Assembly (NCBI GenBank): GCA_039028615.1
Contig: JBCCHT010000008.1
Location: forward strand, 96,001-160,000
Direction: 5' to 3'
From: Myxococcota bacterium
Lineage (GTDB): Bacteria > Myxococcota_A > Polyangia > Nannocystales > Nannocystaceae
Length of the DNA: 64,000 nt
The notes under the pieces are model-generated. The model saw nothing but the letters and a program-made list of their open reading frames with translations. It searched no databases and was not told the origin of the DNA. The position numbers were made by a program, and so were the translations under genes. Within the stretch, counting starts at the first letter, position 1, and each line of letters begins with the position of its first letter. Below, piece by piece: positions 1,613 to 33,903 of the stretch.

Positions 1613-2746
1613 TCACGACCGGGGGCGGGGAAGTGACCACGCGAAGCCGAACTCCAGACCCATGTTGAGCTCGAGGCCGCCCACCCGCGCGAGGACCGAA
1701 GGCGTCTGGTCCTCGAACACCACCAGCCGAGCCACGGCGCCGGCCTGAGCCAGAGCGCTCCCGGAGAGCTCGAAGCGCGGACCGATGCGCAGCGCGAGAT
1801 CGGGGCTCAACACGAATCGCCAGGAGGGCACCACCCGCAGGTGCGCGCCGAGCTGGAGCCCTCGGTTGCGGGTCTGCCCGTCGGGGTAGTCCACGAGCTG
1901 GAGCGCGCCGTTTTGCCGTACACCCCACGGCTCGAGGTCGAGGGCCACGACGGTGCGCACGGCGAGGCGACCCCGGCGCCATTCGTAGCCACCACCGATC
2001 GAGATCCGAGAGCGTCCCACCGTCAGTGGCTCGGGGCGATGCCAGTGGGTTCGGACGGCCACCGAGGCGATGGGTCCCCGAGGCCAACGCAGCTCCATGC
2101 CGGCCAGGCCTCCGCCGCCGACGAAACCCGCGGGATCGGGAGGCCCGAAGCCCACGCCCACCGTGCCCGCCGCGATCGCCTCGAGCTCGAAGGGCGGGCG
2201 TCCCGGTGGCTTCGGTGCCGGCTCGGGTTCGGGTTCGGGTTCTGACGCGGGTTCGGGCTCTGGCTCCGGCTCGGGTTCGGGCTCCGGTTCCTCTTCGGCG
2301 GGCAGCGGCACGTCGCGTTCATCGGGCGCGAGCTCGTCGTCCTCGATCGCCGCCAGCAGGTTGGCCACCGTGCTCGCGGCCAGGCGGGGGGCATCGTCGC
2401 GATCGCTGTCGAGGCTGCGGTAGTACGCCCGACCATCGGAGAGCACCACGGTGATCTCCAACGAAGCGTCGCGGTGCCGCACCGTCGCCACGGCGAACAG
2501 CTCGAAGCTCTGGGCGGGCACCGCCGGCCACGGCGGCACATGCAATGAACGCTGAGGGCTACGAAGCTGGAGCGCGTCGAGCACGGGCGCGGCCTCGAGC
2601 CCATCGGGGCGAAGCAGCACACCTTCGATCGGCCGAGCGTGGGTCGCCGCCGCGGGCTCGACCACCGCGGCCGCGGCCGAGGCCGAGGCGAGCAGGAGCC
2701 CGCCGGCCAAGAGCACGGGGCACGACGCTGTCGCCAACCCTGCCAT
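1613..2746 (-). CDS. Exported protein with Pro-Glu linker and probable C-terminal outer-membrane beta-barrel
   Basis: Signal peptide, (EP)n linker, amphipathic beta strands ending GLEFGFAW. Last gene of the ECF cassette. Confidence 0.7.
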   Translation of the reverse strand: MAGLATASCPVLLAGGLLLASASAAAAVVEPAAATHARPIEGVLLRPDGLEAAPVLDALQLRSPQRSLHVPPWPAVPAQSFELFAVATVRHRDASLEITVVLSDGRAYYRSLDSDRDDAPRLAASTVANLLAAIEDDELAPDERDVPLPAEEEPEPEPEPEPEPEPASEPEPEPEPAPKPPGRPPFELEAIAAGTVGVGFGPPDPAGFVGGGGLAGMELRWPRGPIASVAVRTHWHRPEPLTVGRSRISIGGGYEWRRGRLAVRTVVALDLEPWGVRQNGALQLVDYPDGQTRNRGLQLGAHLRVVPSWRFVLSPDLALRIGPRFELSGSALAQAGAVARLVVFEDQTPSVLARVGGLELNMGLEFGFAWSLPRPRS

Positions 2747-2785
2747 CGACCTCAGAATACGGCACGACCGAGCGAGGCCGCACGC

Positions 2786-3385
2786 TCAGGCCTGGACGCA
2801 GGCTTCCTTGCCCTCGATCCACATGCAGTCTGCGACCTCTTCGCACTGCGCGGGCTGGAGGACTTCACAGGGCACGCAGAACATCGAGCCGCACTCGCCC
2901 AGCTTCGGCTCGCCCACCCAGGCGCAGGTGGGCGTCTCGAGGCAGAACTCGAAGTCCAGCTCCAGACACTCGTTCATGGGATCGACGCAGGGGTTGAGCA
3001 CGCAGACGCCCAGCTCGGGATCGCCATCCCACAGGCACTGGCGCAGGCCACTACAGTCGCGAAAGCCCAGGCCCTCGCAGTCGGAGCCTTCCCCGGTGGT
3101 CGTGCCCTCTTCCCCGACGGGGTCGGTGGTGGTGCCCCCCGTCGTGCCCGTACCCGGCTCGCCCATGCCCGTGCTCGTCGCCGGTGCATCGGTGCCCGTG
3201 GACGAGCCGCGGCTGGACGCGCTCGTGTCTTCGGCGGGCGAGGCCGGGTCGGTCGTATCTTCGGGCGCTCCCGTGACCTCGGCCGCTCCCGTCGAGGCCT
3301 CGGGCGTGCCCCCGACGATCAAATCGACGCCGCAGCCGGCCCCGAACACCAACGCGATGCCACCGACGAGGCCGCGCGCCTTCAC
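2786..3385 (-). CDS. Cys-rich lipoprotein with Ser/Thr/Gly stalk
   Basis: Lipobox GAGC, three C-x(4-5)-C-x-W modules, GTGA overlap with the upstream gene. Confidence 0.75.
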   Translation of the reverse strand: MKARGLVGGIALVFGAGCGVDLIVGGTPEASTGAAEVTGAPEDTTDPASPAEDTSASSRGSSTGTDAPATSTGMGEPGTGTTGGTTTDPVGEEGTTTGEGSDCEGLGFRDCSGLRQCLWDGDPELGVCVLNPCVDPMNECLELDFEFCLETPTCAWVGEPKLGECGSMFCVPCEVLQPAQCEEVADCMWIEGKEACVQA

Positions 3386-4452
3386 GGGGCCTGCCCCTCG
3401 TCATCGCGGTCGAGCGCAGCCTTGGCCCGCGCCCGATGAGTTCCGTCGGGCATGGTCTCGAGATAGCGCTGCCAGCACTGGCGCTGCGCGTCACCGCTGG
3501 CTCGACGGCACAGGCCCGCCCGCGCATCGTCGGCAAAGCGTCCGTGGGGGAAGCGCTCGAGGTACTCCCGCCACAGCGCGGTCTCGGTGCCTCGGGCCTT
3601 GCGTTGCCGCGCCAAGGTGAACAGGTCGCCGTAGGCCAGATCGCCCAGGCGCCCCTTGCCCGCCCGCTTGGTCAGGATTCGAAACAGCCGCTCCGCCTTC
3701 GAAAGGTCGCCGGCTCGCCACGCGGCGTGGGCCATCGCGTCGAGCTCTTCCAGGGTGCGGGTCGACGCCCGCGGCTCGGGCTGCGCCCTGGGCCGACGCG
3801 CCCGACGGCGGGCCGGCTCGGCCGGGGCATCGTCGAGGGGCGCGACCGCAGCCGCGGCCTCGGTCTCACCGACCGGCGCTGGCTCGACCTCGGGCTCGAC
3901 GACCGCGGCGGGAGCGGGGGTCTGCACCTCGGCTCCCGGCACCGCGGCGTCCACCGACGGCGAAGGCACACGGGTCGGCACCACGTGCGCGGCCTCGCTG
4001 CGCGACGGATCACCCGAGAGCAATCGTCCGCGACCCGACTCGATCACGCCCCAGCCGATCAACAACAGCACGGCCGCCGCCGCGAACACGGCCGCCCAGA
4101 TCCGGCGCGCCGCGGGCTCTCGATGCGGTGGCTCGAACGCCACGGGCGGCGGCGTTCCCAGGCTCTGGGCGACGTCTTGCTCGACCTCCGCCCGCACGCC
4201 TTCGATCACCGCGAGCAGCTCCACGTCTTCGCGAGTCTGTCGCCGACGGTGCGCGTGCTTGATCGACACCACGGGTGCCCAATGATTGACCTCGGCCACC
4301 GTCTCGGCCGAGATCCGACTGGGATCGAGCTCGTGCGCGCGAGCGATCACGGCCGCAAAGTCGCGATACCCGGGGTCGGCCCCCAGCTCGGCGTCCACCG
4401 TCTCGACCACGCCGTCGAGCAGCGCCCTCAGCTCGAGATCGGCCATCATCAC
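3382..4452 (-). CDS. Putative anti-sigma membrane protein with C-terminal TPR-like helices
   Basis: One TM helix (IWAAVFAAAAVLLLIGWGVI), Pro/Ala linker, repeated YLERFPHGR/YLETMPDGT motifs. GTGA overlap with the sigma gene stop. Confidence 0.7.
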   Translation of the reverse strand: MMMADLELRALLDGVVETVDAELGADPGYRDFAAVIARAHELDPSRISAETVAEVNHWAPVVSIKHAHRRRQTREDVELLAVIEGVRAEVEQDVAQSLGTPPPVAFEPPHREPAARRIWAAVFAAAAVLLLIGWGVIESGRGRLLSGDPSRSEAAHVVPTRVPSPSVDAAVPGAEVQTPAPAAVVEPEVEPAPVGETEAAAAVAPLDDAPAEPARRRARRPRAQPEPRASTRTLEELDAMAHAAWRAGDLSKAERLFRILTKRAGKGRLGDLAYGDLFTLARQRKARGTETALWREYLERFPHGRFADDARAGLCRRASGDAQRQCWQRYLETMPDGTHRARAKAALDRDDEGQAP

Positions 4453-11830: not shown

Positions 11831-13675
11831 ATGCGACGAGCTCGAAAACGACGGACGGTATCCGGCGCGGCCCTACCCATGAGCCTCGGAGTCGCGGCGA
11901 CTCTGCTGCTCGCCGGGTGCGGCAACGTGGAGGGCATGGATCCCAGCGATCCAGCCCGTGGGCCTGGGCAACTGGTTGGCAACGGCGACCCGGTCTCGGC
12001 GGGTGACTTTGCCGGAGGCAACGACGCCATGCCGGCTCCGCGAGAGACCACGCTGCCCGCCGATGGCAGCCTGGCCGATTGCGAAGCCGACTGCCGCAGC
12101 TACTGCGACGGCCTCGACCTGGACAACCCGGTCAACCGCGGCATGTGTGCCTCGGCCTGGGGCGTGGGCCTGGCGTTGCGCCCGGTCGATCGCGCCGAAG
12201 CCTGCCGCCGCATCTACGCCGACTTCATCGGTCGCTTCCCCACCCCCACCGAGGTCGCCGAGGTCTGCAGCAGCGATCGCACCTGGGGCGAGGTCGTGAA
12301 CGCGGTGCTCGACATGGACGAGTACGTCCTCGTCAACCAGCGTCGCTGGGCCGACAAGCTGCTCTACAACAACCGCGCCGTGAACTTCGAGCGCGCCTTC
12401 GACATGGACGAGCTGGTGGGCAAGGCCTACCGCGGTCGCGTGTCGTGGGACCAGTTCGCCGCCGTCACCTCGGCTCACCCCATCATCATGCGGCGCATGG
12501 ACACCGCGGGTGACCGCGCCGAGTTCGTGTTCCGTCTGTTCCTCGGCCGCCCGCCCTACGAGCACGAGCGCTCCGACCTCGGCCGCCTGTATCGCCTGTG
12601 GAACAACGGGTACTGGGATCACCCGCACATCGGCACCGTCCCCGATGCGTTCGTCGAGTTCGCCTGTGTCGACAGCGCGGGCAACGTGGACCCGGGCACC
12701 ATCGGCGAGTGCACCAGCACCCAGTGGGGCTACCAAGAGCTCACCCTCGCCCCCGACCCCAAGCGCGCCGAAAAGAGCGGCGAGCAAGAGGGCCTTTTAT
12801 GGGCGGGCAAGCTGGAGGCCAGCGAGTGGGAGGCCCTGCAGCTGCCCGGTCGCATCATCTCCCAGCAGCCGGCCTTCTGGGAGACCGCGGTCGACGAGAC
12901 CCTCGAGCAATACCTCGGCTACGACCTGGCCACGCTGGTCCCCGAGGTGCGCAACGAGATGGTGCGCTACATCCTCGACTACAACGGGGACATCCGCTCC
13001 TTGCACTTCGCGGTGGCCACCTCGTTCGCGTACTTGCAGTCGGCCGAGGGTGCCTCGGCCACCGACCTGCGCTGGACCTACGGCCCGCTCAAGCAGATCC
13101 AGGTCGAAGGCTGGCTCGACACCATCAAGCACCACGGCGGCGTCCCCCTGGCGCAGTGTGACCATCGCCTGCCGCACCCCGAGGACTACGTCGGCGACAA
13201 CGCCGTCGAGGAAGCCCGCGGCTGGGCCTACTCGATGATCAACCACACCAACTGGGACGTCACCGAAGACCGCGACGTCATCAACAACTATCGCAACCTG
13301 GCCCGCACCCTGGGCGGCTGCCCCTCCAACGAGGTCGGCGGTCGCTTCACCACCGTCTCGGTGCTCAACACCGCGGTCCAAGAGGCGTTCATCGCCGACG
13401 TGTGCGGGCTCGGTACCCCGAACTTCCGCACCATGGAGCTTTCACGGTTGCTCCCCGACGGGGTCTCGGACAACCAAGCCCTCGACACGGCCACGGCCGA
13501 GGCCATCCTCGGTCACCAACAGCGGCTCTTCCTCGGGCGCGGCCTCAACGAGTCCGAGCTCGGGCTGGCCGCCGCCGCGGCCGAGACCTGCACCCCAGCC
13601 CCCTGTGACGCGGAGACCTTCGCCCGGCCCGCCTGCTTTGCCCTGCTCTCCAGCGCGGAGATGCTCTTCTACTAG
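11831..13675 (+). CDS. Lipoprotein with DUF1549/DUF1553-like motifs
   Basis: Lipobox LAGC. RRIYADFIGRFPT and RLFLGRPP resemble PSCyt2/PSD1 motifs. Ends ALLSSAEMLFY and sits directly upstream of a DUF1501 gene. Confidence 0.65.
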   Translation: MRRARKRRTVSGAALPMSLGVAATLLLAGCGNVEGMDPSDPARGPGQLVGNGDPVSAGDFAGGNDAMPAPRETTLPADGSLADCEADCRSYCDGLDLDNPVNRGMCASAWGVGLALRPVDRAEACRRIYADFIGRFPTPTEVAEVCSSDRTWGEVVNAVLDMDEYVLVNQRRWADKLLYNNRAVNFERAFDMDELVGKAYRGRVSWDQFAAVTSAHPIIMRRMDTAGDRAEFVFRLFLGRPPYEHERSDLGRLYRLWNNGYWDHPHIGTVPDAFVEFACVDSAGNVDPGTIGECTSTQWGYQELTLAPDPKRAEKSGEQEGLLWAGKLEASEWEALQLPGRIISQQPAFWETAVDETLEQYLGYDLATLVPEVRNEMVRYILDYNGDIRSLHFAVATSFAYLQSAEGASATDLRWTYGPLKQIQVEGWLDTIKHHGGVPLAQCDHRLPHPEDYVGDNAVEEARGWAYSMINHTNWDVTEDRDVINNYRNLARTLGGCPSNEVGGRFTTVSVLNTAVQEAFIADVCGLGTPNFRTMELSRLLPDGVSDNQALDTATAEAILGHQQRLFLGRGLNESELGLAAAAAETCTPAPCDAETFARPACFALLSSAEMLFY

Positions 13676-26969: not shown

Positions 26970-27572
26970 ATGCGTAGCTGTCCCGAGTGCCACGGGTTCG
27001 TGCCCTCTGCCCAACGCGCGTGCCCCCACTGCGACCACACGTTGCCCACGGCACCAGCCGGCGAAGGCGGTTTCCTGAGTCGGGTGGGCGTGGGGCTCAT
27101 GGCCAGCTCGACCGCGATGACCTTGATGGCGTGCTACGGCGCCCCCTGCCCCGACGAAGATTCGTGCGGCGACGGAGGCAGCGCGGGGCCCCTCGAGGAG
27201 ACTTGCGACTTGATGACGCCGACCGAGGACCTCGGCGTCGACGCGCCCGTCAACGTCTCGGGCACGCTGACCACCGAGGGCAGCAACGTCGGCAGCTGCG
27301 GGGGTGCGGGCGGCGAGATGGTCTACACCTGGACGCCCCCCAGCGCGGGCACGTACACCATCTCGACCGAAGGCCAGCTCGACACCGTGCTCTACGTGCG
27401 CGACGCGGTGGCGGATGCCTGCGGCGTCGAGCTGGCGTGCAACGACGACGAGCCGGGCGCGACCACGTCGTCGCTCACCCTCGACCTGACCGGGGAACCC
27501 ATCGCCATCGTGGTCGACGGGTTCTCGGACGGGACCGCCGGCGACTTCACGCTCTCCATCCAGGGCTCGTAG
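26970..27572 (+). CDS. Zinc-ribbon lipoprotein with C-YGAP motif and PPC-like domain; putative radical SAM substrate
   Basis: CPEC-x10-CPHC, hydrophobic segment, LMAC-YGAP, then YTWTPPSAGTYTIST...DTVLYVRD...ELACNDD. Confidence 0.75.
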   Translation: MRSCPECHGFVPSAQRACPHCDHTLPTAPAGEGGFLSRVGVGLMASSTAMTLMACYGAPCPDEDSCGDGGSAGPLEETCDLMTPTEDLGVDAPVNVSGTLTTEGSNVGSCGGAGGEMVYTWTPPSAGTYTISTEGQLDTVLYVRDAVADACGVELACNDDEPGATTSSLTLDLTGEPIAIVVDGFSDGTAGDFTLSIQGS

Positions 27573-27582
27573 GCGCGCCACG

Positions 27583-28821
27583 GTGGCCGGTCGTCGCCTC
27601 GACGTCGTGGGGCAGGACTTCTTCCCCGCCTACGTGGTGTGGGAGCTGACCCTGCGCTGCGACCTGGCGTGCCGTCACTGCGGCTCGCGAGCGGGGGTTG
27701 CTCGACCCGACGAGCTCGACACCACCGAAGCGCTGGAGGTGGTGCAGCAGCTCGCCGAGCTGGGTGCACGCGAGGTGGTGGTGATCGGCGGCGAGGCCTA
27801 CCTGCACGATGGCTTCCTCGAGATCGTGGCCGCGCTCGCGAAGGCGGGGATCACCCCGGTGATGACCACGGGCGGACGCGGGGTCACGGCGCAGCTGGCC
27901 GCCGATATGAAGGCAGCGGGGCTCCAGCGGGTCAGCGTGAGCATCGATGGCCTCGAGCCGACGCACGACCGCATGCGCGCGTATCGGGGCAGCTTTGCCG
28001 CGGCCACGGCCGCCCTCGACCACTGCCGCGCCGCGGGCCTGGACATCACCGCCAACACCAACGTCAACCGGCTCAATCGCCACGACCTCGAGGGGCTCTA
28101 CGAGCACCTGCGGGACCACCACATCCGGGCGTGGCAGATCCAGCTGACCACCCCGCTGGGGCGCGCGGCCGACCGCACCGAGATGACCGTGCAGCCGTGG
28201 GACCTGCTGACGCTCGTGCCCACCATCGCCGCGCTCAAGGAGCGGGCCTTTGCCGACGGCATCGTCGTCATGCCGGGCAACAACCTGGGGTACTTCGGTC
28301 CCGAAGAAGCGCTGCTGCGATCGCCCTCGCGAGGCGGCCGCGACCACTGGCAGGGCTGTCAGGCGGGGCGCTTCGTGCTCGGCATCGAGTCGGATGGCGC
28401 GGTCAAGGGCTGCCCCTCGCTCCAGACCACCGCGTACGTCGGCGGCAACCTGCGAAGCCAGTCGCTCCGCGAGGTCTGGGACACCACGCCCGAGCTGGGC
28501 TTCACCCGTTCGCGCACGGTCGACGACCTGTGGGGCTACTGCCGCGAGTGCGTCTTCGCCGAGTCCTGCCTGGGCGGGTGCAGCTTCACCGCCCACGCGA
28601 TCTCGGGTCGACCCGGCAACAACCCCTATTGTCATTTTCGGGCGCGCGACTTTGCCAAGCGCGGACTCCGGGAGCGCTTGGTGCCCAGAGAGCCGGCCCC
28701 GGGACGCCCCTTCGACTACGGCGTGTTCGACATCGTGGTGGAAGCGATGGGCAGCGACGAGCCCAGCCTCGACGACGGAGCCCTGGTGCAGATCACCCGA
28801 CGGGCCCAACGACAGCGGTGA
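27583..28821 (+). CDS. Radical SAM/SPASM peptide maturase (splicease-like)
   Basis: VVWELTLRCDLACRHCGSRAG (CxxxCxxC), GGEAYL, GNNLGYFG, WQGCQAG...DGAVKGCPSL, CRECVFAESCLGGC, GNNPYC. Confidence 0.9.
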   Translation: MAGRRLDVVGQDFFPAYVVWELTLRCDLACRHCGSRAGVARPDELDTTEALEVVQQLAELGAREVVVIGGEAYLHDGFLEIVAALAKAGITPVMTTGGRGVTAQLAADMKAAGLQRVSVSIDGLEPTHDRMRAYRGSFAAATAALDHCRAAGLDITANTNVNRLNRHDLEGLYEHLRDHHIRAWQIQLTTPLGRAADRTEMTVQPWDLLTLVPTIAALKERAFADGIVVMPGNNLGYFGPEEALLRSPSRGGRDHWQGCQAGRFVLGIESDGAVKGCPSLQTTAYVGGNLRSQSLREVWDTTPELGFTRSRTVDDLWGYCRECVFAESCLGGCSFTAHAISGRPGNNPYCHFRARDFAKRGLRERLVPREPAPGRPFDYGVFDIVVEAMGSDEPSLDDGALVQITRRAQRQR

Positions 28822-28871: not shown

Positions 28872-30248
28872 ATGAGACGGGTCCTGGTGGTCGGCTTCAC
28901 GGCCAGCCTCGGTGTCGGCTGTGGCTCCGATGCACCGACCACGGCCGGAGGGACCGGCGACACGGGCGAGGACACCACCGCGAGCGAGCCGGCCGAATGT
29001 GCCGAGGACCTCGATTGCCCCGACGAGCGGCCCCAGTGCAGCGAAGGCGTGTGCCTGGCCTGCGCCGATCTCGAGTCGTGCGAGGCCCACGACCCGGCCA
29101 CCCCCGCCTGTCACGAGCCCTCCGGTCGCTGCTTGCCCTGCCTCCCCGACGGCGACACCTGCTCCGGCGACATGCCCCACTGCACGGGCGCGGGCCAGTG
29201 CGTCCAATGCCTCGATTCCACGCACTGCCCCGACAGCGCCTGCAACCGCTTCACGGGGACGTGCATGCCCACCGACTCCGTCTACTGGGTCTTCAACTCC
29301 ACCCAGGACGAGTGGCCCGATCCCGACGGCACCGTCAACGCCCCCTTCGGCAGCATCCAGGAGGTCCTGCAGACGGTGGGCGACGAGCAGGTAACGATCT
29401 GGATCGCCGGGTCCGCGTACATCGAGGCGATGGGGATGACCATCGAGGGGCCTCGCACCGTCGCGATCCGGGAGTTCGTCGAGCCGACCTTCGGGGACGA
29501 TGAGCTCGATCCGCTGTTCGGGGGTGGATTGGCGGCGATGACCGTGACCGGTGGTGCCCGGGTCATCGTCGAGGAGGTCGACGTCACCGAACACGAGGAC
29601 GTGGCCATCGACTGCTTCGGCGCCGACCTGTGGCTGGTGAACCTGGGACTCATGGGAGGCACGGGCACGGGTCTGCGTGCCGTCGACTGCGACGTGCACC
29701 TGTCGGGGGTGCATGTCGGCGGCAACGACCGCGGGGCGATCACGACCTCGGGCAACACCACCCTGTCGATCGTCAACTCGGTGATCGGGCTCAACGGCGT
29801 GCCGCTGGCCACCGAGGGCACGGCCCTCGAGCTGCGCGGAGGGACGGCCGAGATCGTCCACTCCACCATCGCCGCCAACTACGGCGAGCCCGATCGCGCG
29901 TCGGTGCTCTGCAGCGGGGCCGCGCTGCGCATCCACAACAGCATCGTGACCAGCTTCGATGCGTCCATCGACTGCCCGCAGGCCCAGGTCGATCACAGCG
30001 TGGTCGATACCCCCTCGCTGTCGGGCGACGGGGTGTTCATCGCCGACTTCAACCCGCAGTGGTTCAACAGCTTCGGAGCCGGCCGCACGCGAGTCCGGTG
30101 GCCGACCCTGGCCGACCCCGAGTCCTCGCCGATGGCCGGGGTCGCGCAGTGGGCCCTGGGCGATCCCCTGACCGACATCGACGGCGACCCCCGCCCCGCC
30201 GTAGATGGCTCGGAGGACTACGCCGGCTGTGAGCGGCCGCCTCTGTGA
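28872..30248 (+). CDS. Lipoprotein with Cys-rich repeats and right-handed beta-helix domain
   Basis: Lipobox GVGC, Cys-rich block, PDGTVNAPFGSIQE, IVNSVI/IVHSTI/IHNSIV repeats, TDIDGDPRP...AGCE. Confidence 0.78.
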   Translation: MRRVLVVGFTASLGVGCGSDAPTTAGGTGDTGEDTTASEPAECAEDLDCPDERPQCSEGVCLACADLESCEAHDPATPACHEPSGRCLPCLPDGDTCSGDMPHCTGAGQCVQCLDSTHCPDSACNRFTGTCMPTDSVYWVFNSTQDEWPDPDGTVNAPFGSIQEVLQTVGDEQVTIWIAGSAYIEAMGMTIEGPRTVAIREFVEPTFGDDELDPLFGGGLAAMTVTGGARVIVEEVDVTEHEDVAIDCFGADLWLVNLGLMGGTGTGLRAVDCDVHLSGVHVGGNDRGAITTSGNTTLSIVNSVIGLNGVPLATEGTALELRGGTAEIVHSTIAANYGEPDRASVLCSGAALRIHNSIVTSFDASIDCPQAQVDHSVVDTPSLSGDGVFIADFNPQWFNSFGAGRTRVRWPTLADPESSPMAGVAQWALGDPLTDIDGDPRPAVDGSEDYAGCERPPL

Positions 30249-30341
30249 GCCTGGCTTGGTACGACAAAAAACTCCGTTTTCGTGATCCGCTCGGTGCGGA
30301 TTGGGAACAGGACCATCGACCCCCAACGACGGACCCTTCCC

Positions 30342-31541
30342 ATGAAGCACCAATCCCTATTCCTGCGCTCCTCCACCGCAATCCTCGGCATGTCGCTCCT
30401 GCTCGGAGCCTGCGGCGAGGAGCCCAACGACGATGCAGCGGGACTGCAGGCCGACGAAGAGATCATCTACGAACTCCTCCCTGGTGATTACCCCTACCGC
30501 GACGGCGACCGCACCATCTGCGCCGTCTACGAGGCCGACCTGGGCGATGAGATCGACCAGCGCACCGAGCACTACCTCATCGAGCGCATGAACGAGGAGC
30601 TCCAGGACGACGAAGAGTGGGCCGCCTTCTCCGGTTTCGACACCGTGGAGACCTGCGACGACGCCCGCGAATATCAGGCGCTGCGGCTCGAGTATGAGCA
30701 GACGCTTCCGATCGTCTTCAACCCGGAGCGCGGGATGTACCCCGAGGAGCCGGGGGCCGACCTCGGCGACGGCGTCGACAAGATCGGCGAAGCCACGGGC
30801 GAGTCCAACAACGACGCAGTCGTGCGGATCAAGCTGTCCGCCGCCTCGTCCGGCGCCTGCTCGGGCACCATGATCAACAACCGCACCGTGCTCACCGCCG
30901 CGCACTGCTTCCCCGCCGGGCAGCGCCCCATCGCCCTGCGACGCGAGGAAAACGGCAGCCTGCAGAACTTCGTGACCAAGGACGCCACCGTCTACAACCA
31001 CATCGACTACACCGGCGTGGGCGACCCGGGCGACGACATCGGCCTCATCGTGTTCGACACCCCCATCGCCGGGGTGGACAACGGAGCCGACACGCTGCGG
31101 GTGCTGACGTCGGGGATCGACGCGGGTGACAACATCATCTTCCTCGGCTGGGGCATCGCCGATCACCAGGGCACGGGCGCGGGCATCCTCCGCTACGGCC
31201 ACGCCGTCGTGGACTGGGCCAGCTCCCGCCACTTCACCGACACCGTGCTTCAGGGCGGGCCGCGGGCGTGCAAGCAGGACTCGGGCGGACCGGCTCGACT
31301 CAACCGCGGCTCCCATGGCGTGAGCTACGACCTCGTCGGCGGCATGGTCTCCGAGGGTGAGCTGGGCAGCCCCTTCTGCGGCTACCCCGGGCACAAGGTG
31401 CGCTGGGCCGCGACCGAGAGCAAGATCGAGTGGATCGAGACCCGCTTGCTCATCCACGGCATGAACCTGACCCCGCAAGATGCCGGCACCGCGTGCCACC
31501 GTTTCTCGCAGAACGGCCACACCTACATGCGTTGCTGGTAA
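30342..31541 (+). CDS. Trypsin-like (S1) serine protease lipoprotein
   Basis: Lipobox LGAC. Triad motifs CSGT...VLTAAHC, DDIGLI, DSGGP. Confidence 0.9.
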   Translation: MKHQSLFLRSSTAILGMSLLLGACGEEPNDDAAGLQADEEIIYELLPGDYPYRDGDRTICAVYEADLGDEIDQRTEHYLIERMNEELQDDEEWAAFSGFDTVETCDDAREYQALRLEYEQTLPIVFNPERGMYPEEPGADLGDGVDKIGEATGESNNDAVVRIKLSAASSGACSGTMINNRTVLTAAHCFPAGQRPIALRREENGSLQNFVTKDATVYNHIDYTGVGDPGDDIGLIVFDTPIAGVDNGADTLRVLTSGIDAGDNIIFLGWGIADHQGTGAGILRYGHAVVDWASSRHFTDTVLQGGPRACKQDSGGPARLNRGSHGVSYDLVGGMVSEGELGSPFCGYPGHKVRWAATESKIEWIETRLLIHGMNLTPQDAGTACHRFSQNGHTYMRCW

Positions 31542-31621: not shown

Positions 31622-32152
31622 GTGCTTCGACCTCGCCTCGACCCTTGGATTTTCTCTGCCTGCTTGCTGTGGAACGTCGGCTGCGGCGACGACGGTAGTG
31701 ACGACGCGGCATCGACCGCGGCCGGATCCACCTCGATGTCCGCGGCCGAGGGTGGCAGCGGAGGTACCGGAGCGTCGGACCCGACCGGTGGCAACCAGGC
31801 CACCAGCGACGCGATGACCAGCGATGGCGGGGCGACGGGCAATGCCAGCGACGCGACGGGCAACCCGGGCGACGAGACCGGCACCGAGCTCGACTGCTCG
31901 GAGTGCGGCCTCCCCGGCTGCTTCAGCCAGCTCACGGGCGGCCAGTGCGTCTGCGAAGCGGGCTACGAGTGGGCCGACCCCACCGACCCCATGAACTTCC
32001 AGTGCGTGCCGATCTCGAACGGGAGCGGTGGCGACGAGTGTCCCGGGCGCAACAGTCACCTGGAGGGCGAGGTCTGCGTCTGCGACGACGGCTTCGAGTG
32101 GTGTGACCCCAGCGACATCAACAACCAGTCGTGCTGCTTGCCGCCCCGCTGA
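31622..32152 (+). CDS. Small Cys-rich (EGF-like) lipoprotein
   Basis: Stalk followed by two CVCEAGYEW / CVCDDGFEW modules. Confidence 0.7.
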   Translation: MLRPRLDPWIFSACLLWNVGCGDDGSDDAASTAAGSTSMSAAEGGSGGTGASDPTGGNQATSDAMTSDGGATGNASDATGNPGDETGTELDCSECGLPGCFSQLTGGQCVCEAGYEWADPTDPMNFQCVPISNGSGGDECPGRNSHLEGEVCVCDDGFEWCDPSDINNQSCCLPPR

Positions 32153-32220
32153 ACACCAGCGAAAGGCGGGCCCGGCGAGGCCGCCCTTGGCCCGCCTCGC
32201 CGCATTGATTACTTTTGGCC

Positions 32221-33903
32221 ATGCTCCGCCGTCGACGATTCGTGGGCCTGGGTCTGGGAATGCTGGCCAGCGCGTGTGCCAAACAGGGCACCGCCACGCC
32301 GCAGGGCGCCACGGGGCCCGCCTCCCTCATCGTGCAGGGGCGCGTGCTGACCCTCGATCCCGCGCGACCCTCGGCCGAGGCGGTCGCGGTGGCGGGCGGT
32401 CGCATCCTCGCGGTGGGCAGCCTCGACGAGATTGCCGGGCATCGCGGGCCTCAGACCGAGATCGTCGACGTCGGCGATGGCCTGATCACCCCCGGGCTGG
32501 TCGATGCCCATGCCCACCTCGCCGGGCTGGGGCGCGGCCTCGAAGAGGTCGACCTGCGGGGCTCCGCGTCCGTCGAAGAAGTGGTCAAGCGCCTGCACGA
32601 GCACGACCGCGGCCAGCCTTGGCTCACCGGACGCGGCTGGGACCAGAACCTGTGGCCGGGCGGCGCCATGCCGACCCACGACGTCCTGAGCGCGGCGTTC
32701 CCCGATCGCCCGGTATGGCTGCGCCGAGTCGACGGTCATGCGGGTTGGGCCAATGCCGCCGCGATGAAGGCCTCGGGGATCGAGCCCGGCCGCAAGTCCC
32801 CCGAAGGCGGGGAGATCCTGGTCAGCGTCGATGGCCAACCAACCGGCGTGCTCATCGATGCGGCCATGGCGTTGATGAACCCGCCCACGCCGACCGAAGC
32901 GGACCTCCGTCGCCAGCTGGATGCCGCGCAGCAGCACGTGCTCGAGCGCGGCCTGACCGGCGTGCACGACATGGGCGTCGGCCCCATGCTCGATGCGATC
33001 TACCGCGAGACCGCGACCCGAAGCGACGTCGAGCAGCGGCTTCGGCTGCGCGTGTGGGGCTATGCCGACTCGAGCTGGCTCCCCGAGCTCGCGCCGCAGC
33101 GACGCGCCGACCGGCCGGGACCCGAGGATCTGTACGCATTGGTCGGGGTCAAGGTCTACGCCGATGGTGCGCTGGGCAGCCGGGGCGCGGCATTGTTGGC
33201 GCCCTACCACGACCGACCCGACCACACCGGGCTCATGCAGCGCGATCCCGAGGCCCTTCGGGCGCTGTACGAGCTGGCGGTGGAGCACGGCTACCAGATC
33301 GCGACCCATGCCATCGGCGACGCAGCCAACCGAGCCGTGCTCGATGGCTACCAGGCCGTCATCGAGGCCAACGGGCTGCAGGACGCCCGCCTTCGAGTCG
33401 AGCACGCGCAGATCCTCCACCCCGACGACATCCCCCGCTTCGCCGAGCTCGGGGTGATCGCCAGCATGCAGCCCACCCACGCCACCAGCGACATGGCCTG
33501 GGTGCCCGATCGCGTCGGCCCCGAGCGCGTGTCCGGGGCCTACGCCTGGCGGAGGATCCTCGATGCCAAGGGCCACCTGTGCTTCGGCAGCGACTTCCCC
33601 GTCGAGCTGGTCGACGTGACGCACGGGCTCTACTCCGCCATCACCCGCGCGGACCCGAAGGGGCAGCCCGCCGGAGGGTGGACCCCGGATCAGCTGCTCT
33701 CGCTCGAAGAGGCGATTGCCGCGTTCAGCCGGGATGCCGCCTACGCCGGGTTCTCCGAGGGCTATCTGGGTACGATCGTCGAAGGGGCGCGCGCCGACTT
33801 CAGCTGCTTCCGCGACGATCTGCGCACCCTCGATCCCGCCGGAGTTCGCGATGCCGTCGTCGCGGCCACCATCGTCGACGGGCTCGTTCGCTATCGAGCC
33901 TGA
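32221..33903 (+). CDS. Amidohydrolase_3 (YtcJ-like) protein, probable Tat lipoprotein
   Basis: RRRRF...ASAC. PGLVDAHAH, RVDGHAGWAN, KVYADGALGSRGA, HAIGD, RVEHAQ, SMQPTH, GSDFPV. Confidence 0.92.
   Translation: MLRRRRFVGLGLGMLASACAKQGTATPQGATGPASLIVQGRVLTLDPARPSAEAVAVAGGRILAVGSLDEIAGHRGPQTEIVDVGDGLITPGLVDAHAHLAGLGRGLEEVDLRGSASVEEVVKRLHEHDRGQPWLTGRGWDQNLWPGGAMPTHDVLSAAFPDRPVWLRRVDGHAGWANAAAMKASGIEPGRKSPEGGEILVSVDGQPTGVLIDAAMALMNPPTPTEADLRRQLDAAQQHVLERGLTGVHDMGVGPMLDAIYRETATRSDVEQRLRLRVWGYADSSWLPELAPQRRADRPGPEDLYALVGVKVYADGALGSRGAALLAPYHDRPDHTGLMQRDPEALRALYELAVEHGYQIATHAIGDAANRAVLDGYQAVIEANGLQDARLRVEHAQILHPDDIPRFAELGVIASMQPTHATSDMAWVPDRVGPERVSGAYAWRRILDAKGHLCFGSDFPVELVDVTHGLYSAITRADPKGQPAGGWTPDQLLSLEEAIAAFSRDAAYAGFSEGYLGTIVEGARADFSCFRDDLRTLDPAGVRDAVVAATIVDGLVRYRA

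Follow-up and report, generated by a model that had tools for sequence, protein, structure and literature searches.

Within a 64,000-nucleotide stretch of a Myxococcota bacterium genome (assembly GCA_039028615.1, contig JBCCHT010000008.1, positions 96,001 to 160,000; hereafter the window), we examined a two-gene unit on the + strand that comprises a 200-amino-acid open reading frame (ORF) at 26970-27572 and, after a gap of 10 bp, a 412-amino-acid ORF with a GTG start codon at 27583-28821. The unit is a real, conserved and specific feature, a variant of the spliceotide systems: the larger gene encodes a radical S-adenosylmethionine (SAM)/SPASM enzyme of the splicease group, and the smaller one a zinc-ribbon protein with a signal-like segment that runs into a Cys-Tyr-Gly (CYG) motif. 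Judged from sequence, splicing at the CYG site is likely. Our preferred interpretation, to which we give slightly less than an even chance, is a binary spliceotide system (without a PlpY protein) in which the substrate is a lipoprotein, and splicing and lipidation would both take place on one molecule at the lipobox cysteine. The initial annotation of this DNA, made from the letters alone, had described a 200-amino-acid gene 10 bp before a radical SAM/SPASM gene, and both ORFs were found where it had placed them.

The splicease-group enzyme and its CYG partner

We detected the Pfam Radical_SAM and SPASM domains in the 412-amino-acid enzyme, both above their cut-offs. The CxxxCxxC radical SAM cluster motif (C26, C30 and C33) lies at 27658..27681 (+) and the SPASM domain, with seven cysteines (259, 277, 320, 323, 329, 333 and 350), at 28357..28632 (+). 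All ten cluster cysteines were common to the reference enzymes, and those of the SPASM domain were conserved in 24/24 enzymes of the CYG-associated clade, 31/31 of its sister clades and 3/3 reference enzymes. The four enzyme motifs listed in the initial annotation were present, at residues 20, 232, 275 and 345. Among NCBIfam models, the enzyme scored best with TIGR04103, which we take to be the family of PlpX, and with TIGR03913 (469 and 409 bits, respectively), followed by AhbD (152 bits), TIGR04133 (140 bits, cut-off 425) and PqqE (93 bits). On the TIGR04103 scale, two DUF1843-associated (GDL-type) reference enzymes reached 435 and 461 bits and a Nostoc reference 853 bits. Sequence identity was 48% with the Nostoc protein annotated as TIGR04103 and 41-43% with the DUF1843-associated references, compared with 22-27% for two further radical SAM proteins encoded in the same genome. 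In trees of 97 sequences (FastTree) and 47 of those (IQ-TREE), the enzyme grouped with the TIGR04103/TIGR03913-type references (support 0.899 and 83.1, respectively); it did not cluster with NirJ, Ahb or PqqE and stood closer to PlpX-type enzymes than to those families or MftC, as had been proposed. By profile scores and tree position, the enzyme is a member of the splicease group, with intact predicted ligands for the radical SAM and SPASM clusters. Its structure model contains no N-terminal RRE, and the first strand begins at residue 17. A structure search of the PDB found no solved splicease structure, the best matches being SkfB and PqqE. The ESM Atlas yielded nothing but unnamed clusters from Myxococcota (at 0.89).

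The 200-amino-acid putative substrate begins with a zinc ribbon (C4xxC7-x10-C18PxC21; 26979..27032, +), which is predicted to be cytoplasmic and may serve as a recognition handle for the enzyme. Then come Arg38 and 16 uncharged residues that end in T-L-M-A (residues 39-54; 27081..27131, +), a lipobox-like L-M-A-C with Cys55 as the +1 residue (27123..27134, +) and the overlapping C-Y-G-A-P, which is the predicted X-Y-G splice site with Cys55 as X (27132..27146, +). Among the four tyrosines of the protein, only Tyr56 forms a YG, with Gly57. The zinc ribbon, the signal-like stretch, LMACYGAP and the single YG had all been pointed out in the initial annotation, and all are present. The four zinc-ribbon cysteines were invariant in 90/90 aligned relatives, and the ribbon of the window protein gave weak matches, below cut-off, to Pfam UPF0547 and Zn_ribbon_3. 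Nif11 and DUF1843 profiles gave no match to the partner. In the AlphaFold model, the zinc ribbon is confident (predicted local distance difference test, pLDDT, ~90), the middle is of low confidence and a beta-sandwich occupies residues 94-199. This PPC-type cargo domain (27249..27566, +) follows a short Cys/acidic linker, and its top Foldseek match was the PPC domain of a collagenase (5sv5, E 2.2e-6), which backs the PPC-like fold suggested earlier; the Pfam PPC model matched 1/90 relatives and not the window protein. The cargo after CYG is variable in the family, with a PPC domain here, Cu-binding_MopE repeats in 28/90 relatives and low-complexity tails, and the cargo domains appear to be of an extracytoplasmic type. 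The PPC domain was rejected as a core part of the system, a similar C-terminal domain being present at only 4/80 orthologous loci.

A GTDB scan confirmed 490 enzyme loci, of which the best 80 (63-74% identity) were analysed. These span Sorangium, Polyangium, Archangium, Corallococcus, Pyxidicoccus, Plesiocystis, Nannocystis and many metagenome-assembled genomes; they overlap in part with the 12 close-ortholog genomes described below, and related genomes are not independent samples. A CYG zinc-ribbon partner was found within 3 kb of the enzyme at 70/80 of these best loci (69 by one pattern, and locus L080 by a second). Of the remaining ten, one (L105) had an IYG partner and nine were without a partner within 3 kb; for seven of those nine a TLMACYG protein was encoded elsewhere in the genome, one had a profile match only and one had nothing. 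Among 60 relatives of the source genome, 43 carried an enzyme homolog (E 1e-60) and 12 a close ortholog (63-73% identity), and 12/12 of the close-ortholog loci had a zinc-ribbon partner with a hydrophobic stretch ending in [LM]MACYG. Matches to a CYG-partner profile occurred in exactly 13/61 genomes, the ones with the enzyme sub-clade. Since the profile was built from those 13 genomes, only the 48 negatives count: the profile search found no CYG-type partner in 48/48 related genomes without the enzyme sub-clade, 31 of which have other paralogs. As a control, CYG was present in 0/381 ordinary lipoproteins predicted by regular expression in the source genome, and 2 of the 850 tyrosines in the first 140 residues of the control lipoproteins lay within YGxP. 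Conservation of YG beside orthologs, on which the initial annotation had staked its proposal, is borne out by these counts. The adjacency and the co-occurrence across 61 genomes point to the small protein as the likely cognate substrate of the enzyme. The partner retains an invariant A-C-Y-G.

The 76 partners recovered with the first pattern read TLMAC (64), TLAAC (4), SLMAC (3), TMMAC (3) or LLAAC (2) up to the cysteine, and relative to the enzyme they were divergent in 34 cases, upstream in 26, downstream in 10 and convergent in 6. In a profile search of 1.84 billion representative sequences, which favours the motif by construction, 369 proteins were found at E 1e-10, and C-Y-G was present in 137 of the 140 analysed (150 listed of the 369, minus 10 multi-repeat zinc-ribbon proteins). 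A spread sample of the Myxococcota phylum gave a CYG-type match in 18/301 genomes, so the sub-type is patchy. Two CYG-type partners with different cargo stood near one enzyme at L034, L039, L042, L044, L056, L065 and L082, either on both sides or in tandem. Contigs from an RNA library related to the Sorangium cellulosum So ce56 locus were considered as a sign of expression and discarded as evidence: one of them spans both divergent genes, and carry-over of DNA is possible.

A probable lipobox and a predicted splice site in one motif

The source genome (G000, 12.3 Mb; the closest named orthologs are in Myxococcota) encodes six full-length paralogs of the enzyme and one split remnant. Next to five of the six paralogs, among them the one in the window, a protein is encoded that combines a zinc ribbon with a hydrophobic segment and a lipobox-like cysteine, and one of these five proteins has YA in place of YG. 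The remnant lies in two pieces at C80:11294-12836, with a gene for a secreted Cys-rich protein (11973-12509) between them. Four further zinc-ribbon proteins with a lipobox-like cysteine are encoded elsewhere in the genome. One of those, at G000:C26:121475-121879 (L001:8476-8880, +), combines zinc ribbon, helix, MMACYGAPP and an Ala/Glu-rich tail; no enzyme gene adjoins it, and it is likely a substrate in trans of the window enzyme.

At 57 loci of more distant paralogs we found 36 partners, most of them with textbook lipoboxes (LAAC, LAGC, LSAC, LVGC). They contained 74 YG sites at a median of 80 residues after the cysteine, with K (25), D (16), E (8), A (5), L (5), T (5), F (4), C (3) and V (3) among the X residues. 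The cysteine is thus kept where no tyrosine follows, which supports its role in a lipobox, and the YG is kept where it is far from the cysteine, which supports its role as a splice site; the CYG sub-type appears to fuse the two into one motif. Some sister-clade partners have Tyr-Ala (YAG, YAV) in place of Tyr-Gly (G000:C1:6677-7858, C1:671923-672618 and C30:88140-88715; L024, L030 and L147), possibly a relaxed or altered splice motif.

The segment before the cysteine has the features of a lipoprotein signal peptide, namely a positive n-region, an uncharged h-region and a cysteine at the end of the h-region, with an n-region extended by the zinc ribbon. In the window protein, the last 15 residues of the h-region have a mean hydropathy of 1.27. 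In the family (140 proteins), the median uncharged run was 17 residues, an Arg or Lys ended the run in 139/140, and the mean net charge was +2.8 before this run and -4.0 after it. Median hydropathy was 1.55 in the family and 1.57 in the control lipoproteins, which had been pre-filtered at >=1.0; an unusually weak h-region that would delay export was not supported as an explanation for the family. Tat export was also set aside, with RR in only 45/140 n-regions and a single Arg in the window protein. L-M-A-C fits three of the four positions of the textbook lipobox, [LV][ASTVI][GAS]C (PMC8689077), and 6/76 partners have LAAC. The initial annotation had taken this cysteine as the lipidation site, and by the charge pattern and h-region of the family and the textbook lipoboxes of the sister clades it looks like a lipobox cysteine. 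On these features we consider it probable that the partner is a true lipoprotein. T-4, L-3 and M-2 are conserved at 94-97% in the family, beyond what a lipobox needs, which suggests that this segment is under a further constraint; recognition by the enzyme would be the simplest one.

Predicted maturation, rival explanations and flanking genes

Spliceases excise tyramine at X-Y-G and join the tyrosine carbonyl to X (PMC11414181, PMC11626197, PMC9811515), and in binary splicease systems the activator is a leader helix (PMC11414181). On the outer face of the inner membrane, Lgt, LspA and Lnt work one after another (PMC8689077). We infer that the enzyme would bind the unexported precursor in the cytoplasm, by way of the zinc ribbon, the conserved TLMA segment or both, and excise tyramine (C8H9NO, ~135 Da) from Tyr56, converting Cys55 to alpha-keto-beta-homocysteine joined to Gly57. 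The spliced precursor would insert N-in through Sec, Lgt would add diacylglyceryl to the Cys55 thiol, LspA would remove the zinc ribbon with the signal peptide, and Lnt would acylate the amine. As splicing would precede export, the steps would run from splicing through insertion, lipidation and cleavage to acylation. The ordinary lipoprotein pathway would then serve as both leader peptidase and exporter, and since no conserved peptidase, transporter or third gene was found at the 80 ortholog loci, the pattern fits use of the housekeeping export machinery. The initial annotation had also raised competition between splicing and lipidation as a switch of localisation. A radical SAM enzyme is cytoplasmic and Lgt works at the outer face, so the steps would be sequential; simultaneous competition is not upheld, and a switch would be possible only if Lgt or LspA refuse the spliced form.

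The resulting protein would be anchored in the membrane, with a keto-amide beside the lipid and the variable cargo after it. Several spliceotide products inhibit serine and cysteine proteases (PMC11414181, PMC11626197, PMC9811515), and by analogy this one would most likely act at the membrane surface as a trap for a serine or cysteine hydrolase. Keto-amides enolise at the former alpha-carbon (PMC10533398), so on chemical grounds the thioether, being beta to the ketone, could eliminate; the lipid anchor would then be releasable, and a vinyl keto-amide electrophile would result. In either form the warhead would be held at the membrane surface and could capture membrane hydrolases there; rhomboid proteases are inhibited by peptidyl keto-amides (PMC5746060). 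The broader proposal of a dedicated, Myxococcota-wide splicease sub-clade that rewrites the backbone at the +1 cysteine, to give an N-acyl-S-diacylglyceryl-alpha-keto-beta-homocysteine N-terminus, is tentative and less likely than not.

Several observations weigh against lipidation and splicing at one cysteine. The enzyme lies under the curated cut-offs of both TIGR04103 (725 bits) and TIGR03913 (592 bits), the tree references are annotated family members and include no sequence of a biochemically proven splicease, and Cys as X is not reported in the passages of the splicease literature that were covered. Enzymes with CYG-only partners form one clade of moderate support (0.836; Shimodaira-Hasegawa approximate likelihood ratio test, SH-aLRT, 74.9), in part by construction because the enzymes were chosen by similarity. 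The sister loci L017, L021 and L118 carry LAAC/LTAC-YG plus distal sites (KYG[AG]P), so the motif is not exclusive to the clade, and CYG possibly arose there independently. At L105 (L105:1986-2924), the partner of a CYG-clade enzyme has its YG at +6 from the cysteine, with Ile as X; this partner is a natural control for the fused Cys-Tyr-Gly motif. On the export side, a folded zinc ribbon sits in the n-region, the Met at -2 departs from the textbook lipobox and was found in only 6/335 predicted ordinary lipoproteins of the source genome, and the five lgt-like genes of that genome (contigs C3, C59, C38, C2 and C37) all score below cut-off. Of its four lspA-like genes (contigs C62, C59 and C52), three are above cut-off, as are both lnt-like genes, and the presence of lgt-, lspA- and lnt-like genes speaks for the lipoprotein reading. 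An lspA-lgt-lspA cluster is present at G000 C59:20186-22298, and specialised Lgt/LspA paralogs might handle unusual lipoboxes.

Splicing and lipidation could instead be alternative fates of the precursor: the spliced form would spoil the site of Lgt and LspA and stay uncleaved in the inner membrane, with the zinc ribbon inside and the keto-amide at the outer face, and the unspliced form would become an ordinary lipoprotein. The backbone change would fall directly after the +1 cysteine on which Lgt and LspA act (PMC8689077), splicease conversion is often moderate (PMC11626197), and the conservation at -4 to -2 in excess of lipobox needs would also agree with such a scheme. The sister clades, however, keep zinc ribbon and lipobox with a YG far from the cysteine, so the basic product of the family seems to be both lipidated and spliced, and no conserved regulator was found near the enzyme at the 80 ortholog loci. 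We regard these exclusive fates as unlikely.

The clade residues raise the question of whether the chemistry itself has changed. Enzymes of the CYG clade have H75, G77 and N160 where the sisters have R, D and Q (31/31 each), as well as E241 and Q281; the first three replace residues that are invariant in the sisters and mostly common to the references, and they could mean altered chemistry. A diverged sub-clade might make another change, such as a thioether or other cross-link between Cys and Tyr, and lipidation would then be blocked as well; the cysteine adjoining the target tyrosine is invariant, and thioether-forming SPASM enzymes are well known. Yet the clade is nested among enzymes with X-Y-G partners in which X is K, D, E, A, L, T, F or V, the glycine after the tyrosine is invariant, and L105 keeps YG apart from the cysteine. 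Such a change of chemistry appears quite improbable.

Improbable to the same degree is a partner that is no lipoprotein at all, in which the hydrophobic segment would serve as a leader helix for activation, in the manner of the RhaA leader or of PlpY, and its lipobox likeness would be incidental; the product would be released by another protease, or be cytoplasmic or signal-anchored. Activation of binary spliceases by a leader helix (PMC11414181), the unusual conservation of GGA[VI]A[MV]TLMA for a signal peptide, the rarity of Met at -2 and an n-region made long by the zinc ribbon speak for it. Against it stand the natural LAAC, LIAC and LSAC variants, which fit the textbook lipobox, a charge pattern and hydropathy that match those of ordinary lipoproteins (with the filter noted above), the sister-clade partners with mostly canonical lipoboxes and no Tyr nearby, and the extracytoplasmic type of the cargo. 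Finally, chance neighbourhood of an unrelated small gene, for which one could cite the varying gene order and orientation and the nine loci without a nearby partner, is already largely refuted by adjacency at 70/80 loci across all four orientations, the exact co-occurrence in 61 genomes and the lack of CYG in the control lipoproteins, and we consider it extremely unlikely.

Should splicing and lipidation coincide on one cysteine, they would create a lipoprotein N-terminus of a new kind and a lipidated keto-amide that is genetically encoded. Should they be mutually exclusive, the enzyme would control a switch in protein sorting. Both outcomes would be new biology where two well-studied pathways join. 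The exact mature structure is predicted, and culturable carriers include Sorangium cellulosum So ce56, Plesiocystis pacifica SIR-1, Corallococcus and Archangium.

Downstream of the enzyme on the + strand are genes for predicted lipoproteins (Cys-rich, 28872-30248; trypsin-like protease, 30282-31541, Pfam Trypsin E 4e-15; Cys-rich, 31622-32152) and an Amidohydro_3 protein (32215-33903). The initial annotation had listed the Cys-rich lipoproteins and the protease, and they are present; as conserved neighbours they did not stand, since tblastn with the proteins at 28872, 30282, 31622 and 32215 and with the upstream amidohydrolase gave matches at 0/80 ortholog loci (flanks <=3 kb). The downstream genes were thus ruled out as parts of the system. 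Among neighbour clusters at these 80 loci, the one spanning 27 loci is an antisense frame of the enzyme itself, and the remaining clusters cover <=6 loci each.

Two other loci were also recorded. At L153:3697-4002, a small lipoprotein-like gene without a zinc ribbon, ending in repeated YG motifs, follows a more distant enzyme (~40% identity). L115 (Tropicibacter oceani plasmid, 2180-3802) encodes a splicease-like radical SAM protein of greater length, and its operon also includes genes for a phosphotransferase and for two peptidases, one trypsin-like and one of the M23 family; no obvious YG precursor is annotated.

Relation to known systems

A survey lists 27 characterised and 939 predicted spliceotide systems in 189 genera (via PMC10533398, PMC10849128). 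No myxobacterial splicease substrate of the CYG or lipobox kind was found described in the literature covered, which did not include the main survey (Scott et al. 2022), so that absence from print is not established. By family cut-offs, the system is not a member of TIGR04103, TIGR03913 or TIGR04133/TIGR04134.

The type I systems of Pleurocapsa (PlpA/PlpX/PlpY and PcpAXY), in which PlpX belongs to IPR026482 (PMC11002830), share with the window the same ten cluster cysteines and an adjacent X-Y-G precursor. They differ in that the window enzyme is below the TIGR04103 cut-off (469 of 725), its precursor lacks a Nif11/NHLP leader and has a zinc ribbon, a folded cargo and an export signal, and the 80 loci showed no conserved third gene as a candidate for a PlpY-type protein. 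X is Cys here, whereas type I systems natively have Met or Leu at this position (PMC10533398, PMC9811515).

The binary RhaX/RhaA, RcsX and RasX systems of Rheinheimera (type II) are alike in their two components and in a helical segment upstream of the YG. The type II Rheinheimera spliceases and the GDL/DUF1843-associated TIGR03913 enzymes are presumably the same group, and the window enzyme falls below the TIGR03913 cut-off (409 of 592). Type II products are described as short peptides, whereas the helix of the window protein resembles a lipoprotein signal peptide, with the site at the predicted cleavage point.

The Bacteroidota TIGR04133 and TIGR04134 families likewise pair a radical SAM/SPASM enzyme with a putative lipoprotein. 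In TIGR04134 lipoproteins, a YG follows the lipobox at a distance of a few residues, and these proteins are not known to carry a zinc ribbon. The window enzyme reaches 140 of 425 bits with TIGR04133, its substrate has no TIGR04134 match, and no match above the TIGR04134 cut-off was found in the source genome.

The sister Myxococcota systems have the same layout of zinc ribbon, signal and lipobox, and their enzymes are 45-53% identical to that of the window. Their YG[AVG]P sites are distal and often repeated, with X mostly K, D or E, whereas here there is usually one site at +2; the zinc-ribbon signature is GF[VL]P in the CYG sub-type and RH[VI] in the sister systems. Neither the enzyme family nor the pairing of such an enzyme with a lipoprotein is new; what sets this group apart is that a whole enzyme sub-clade appears to be aimed at the lipid-anchor cysteine.

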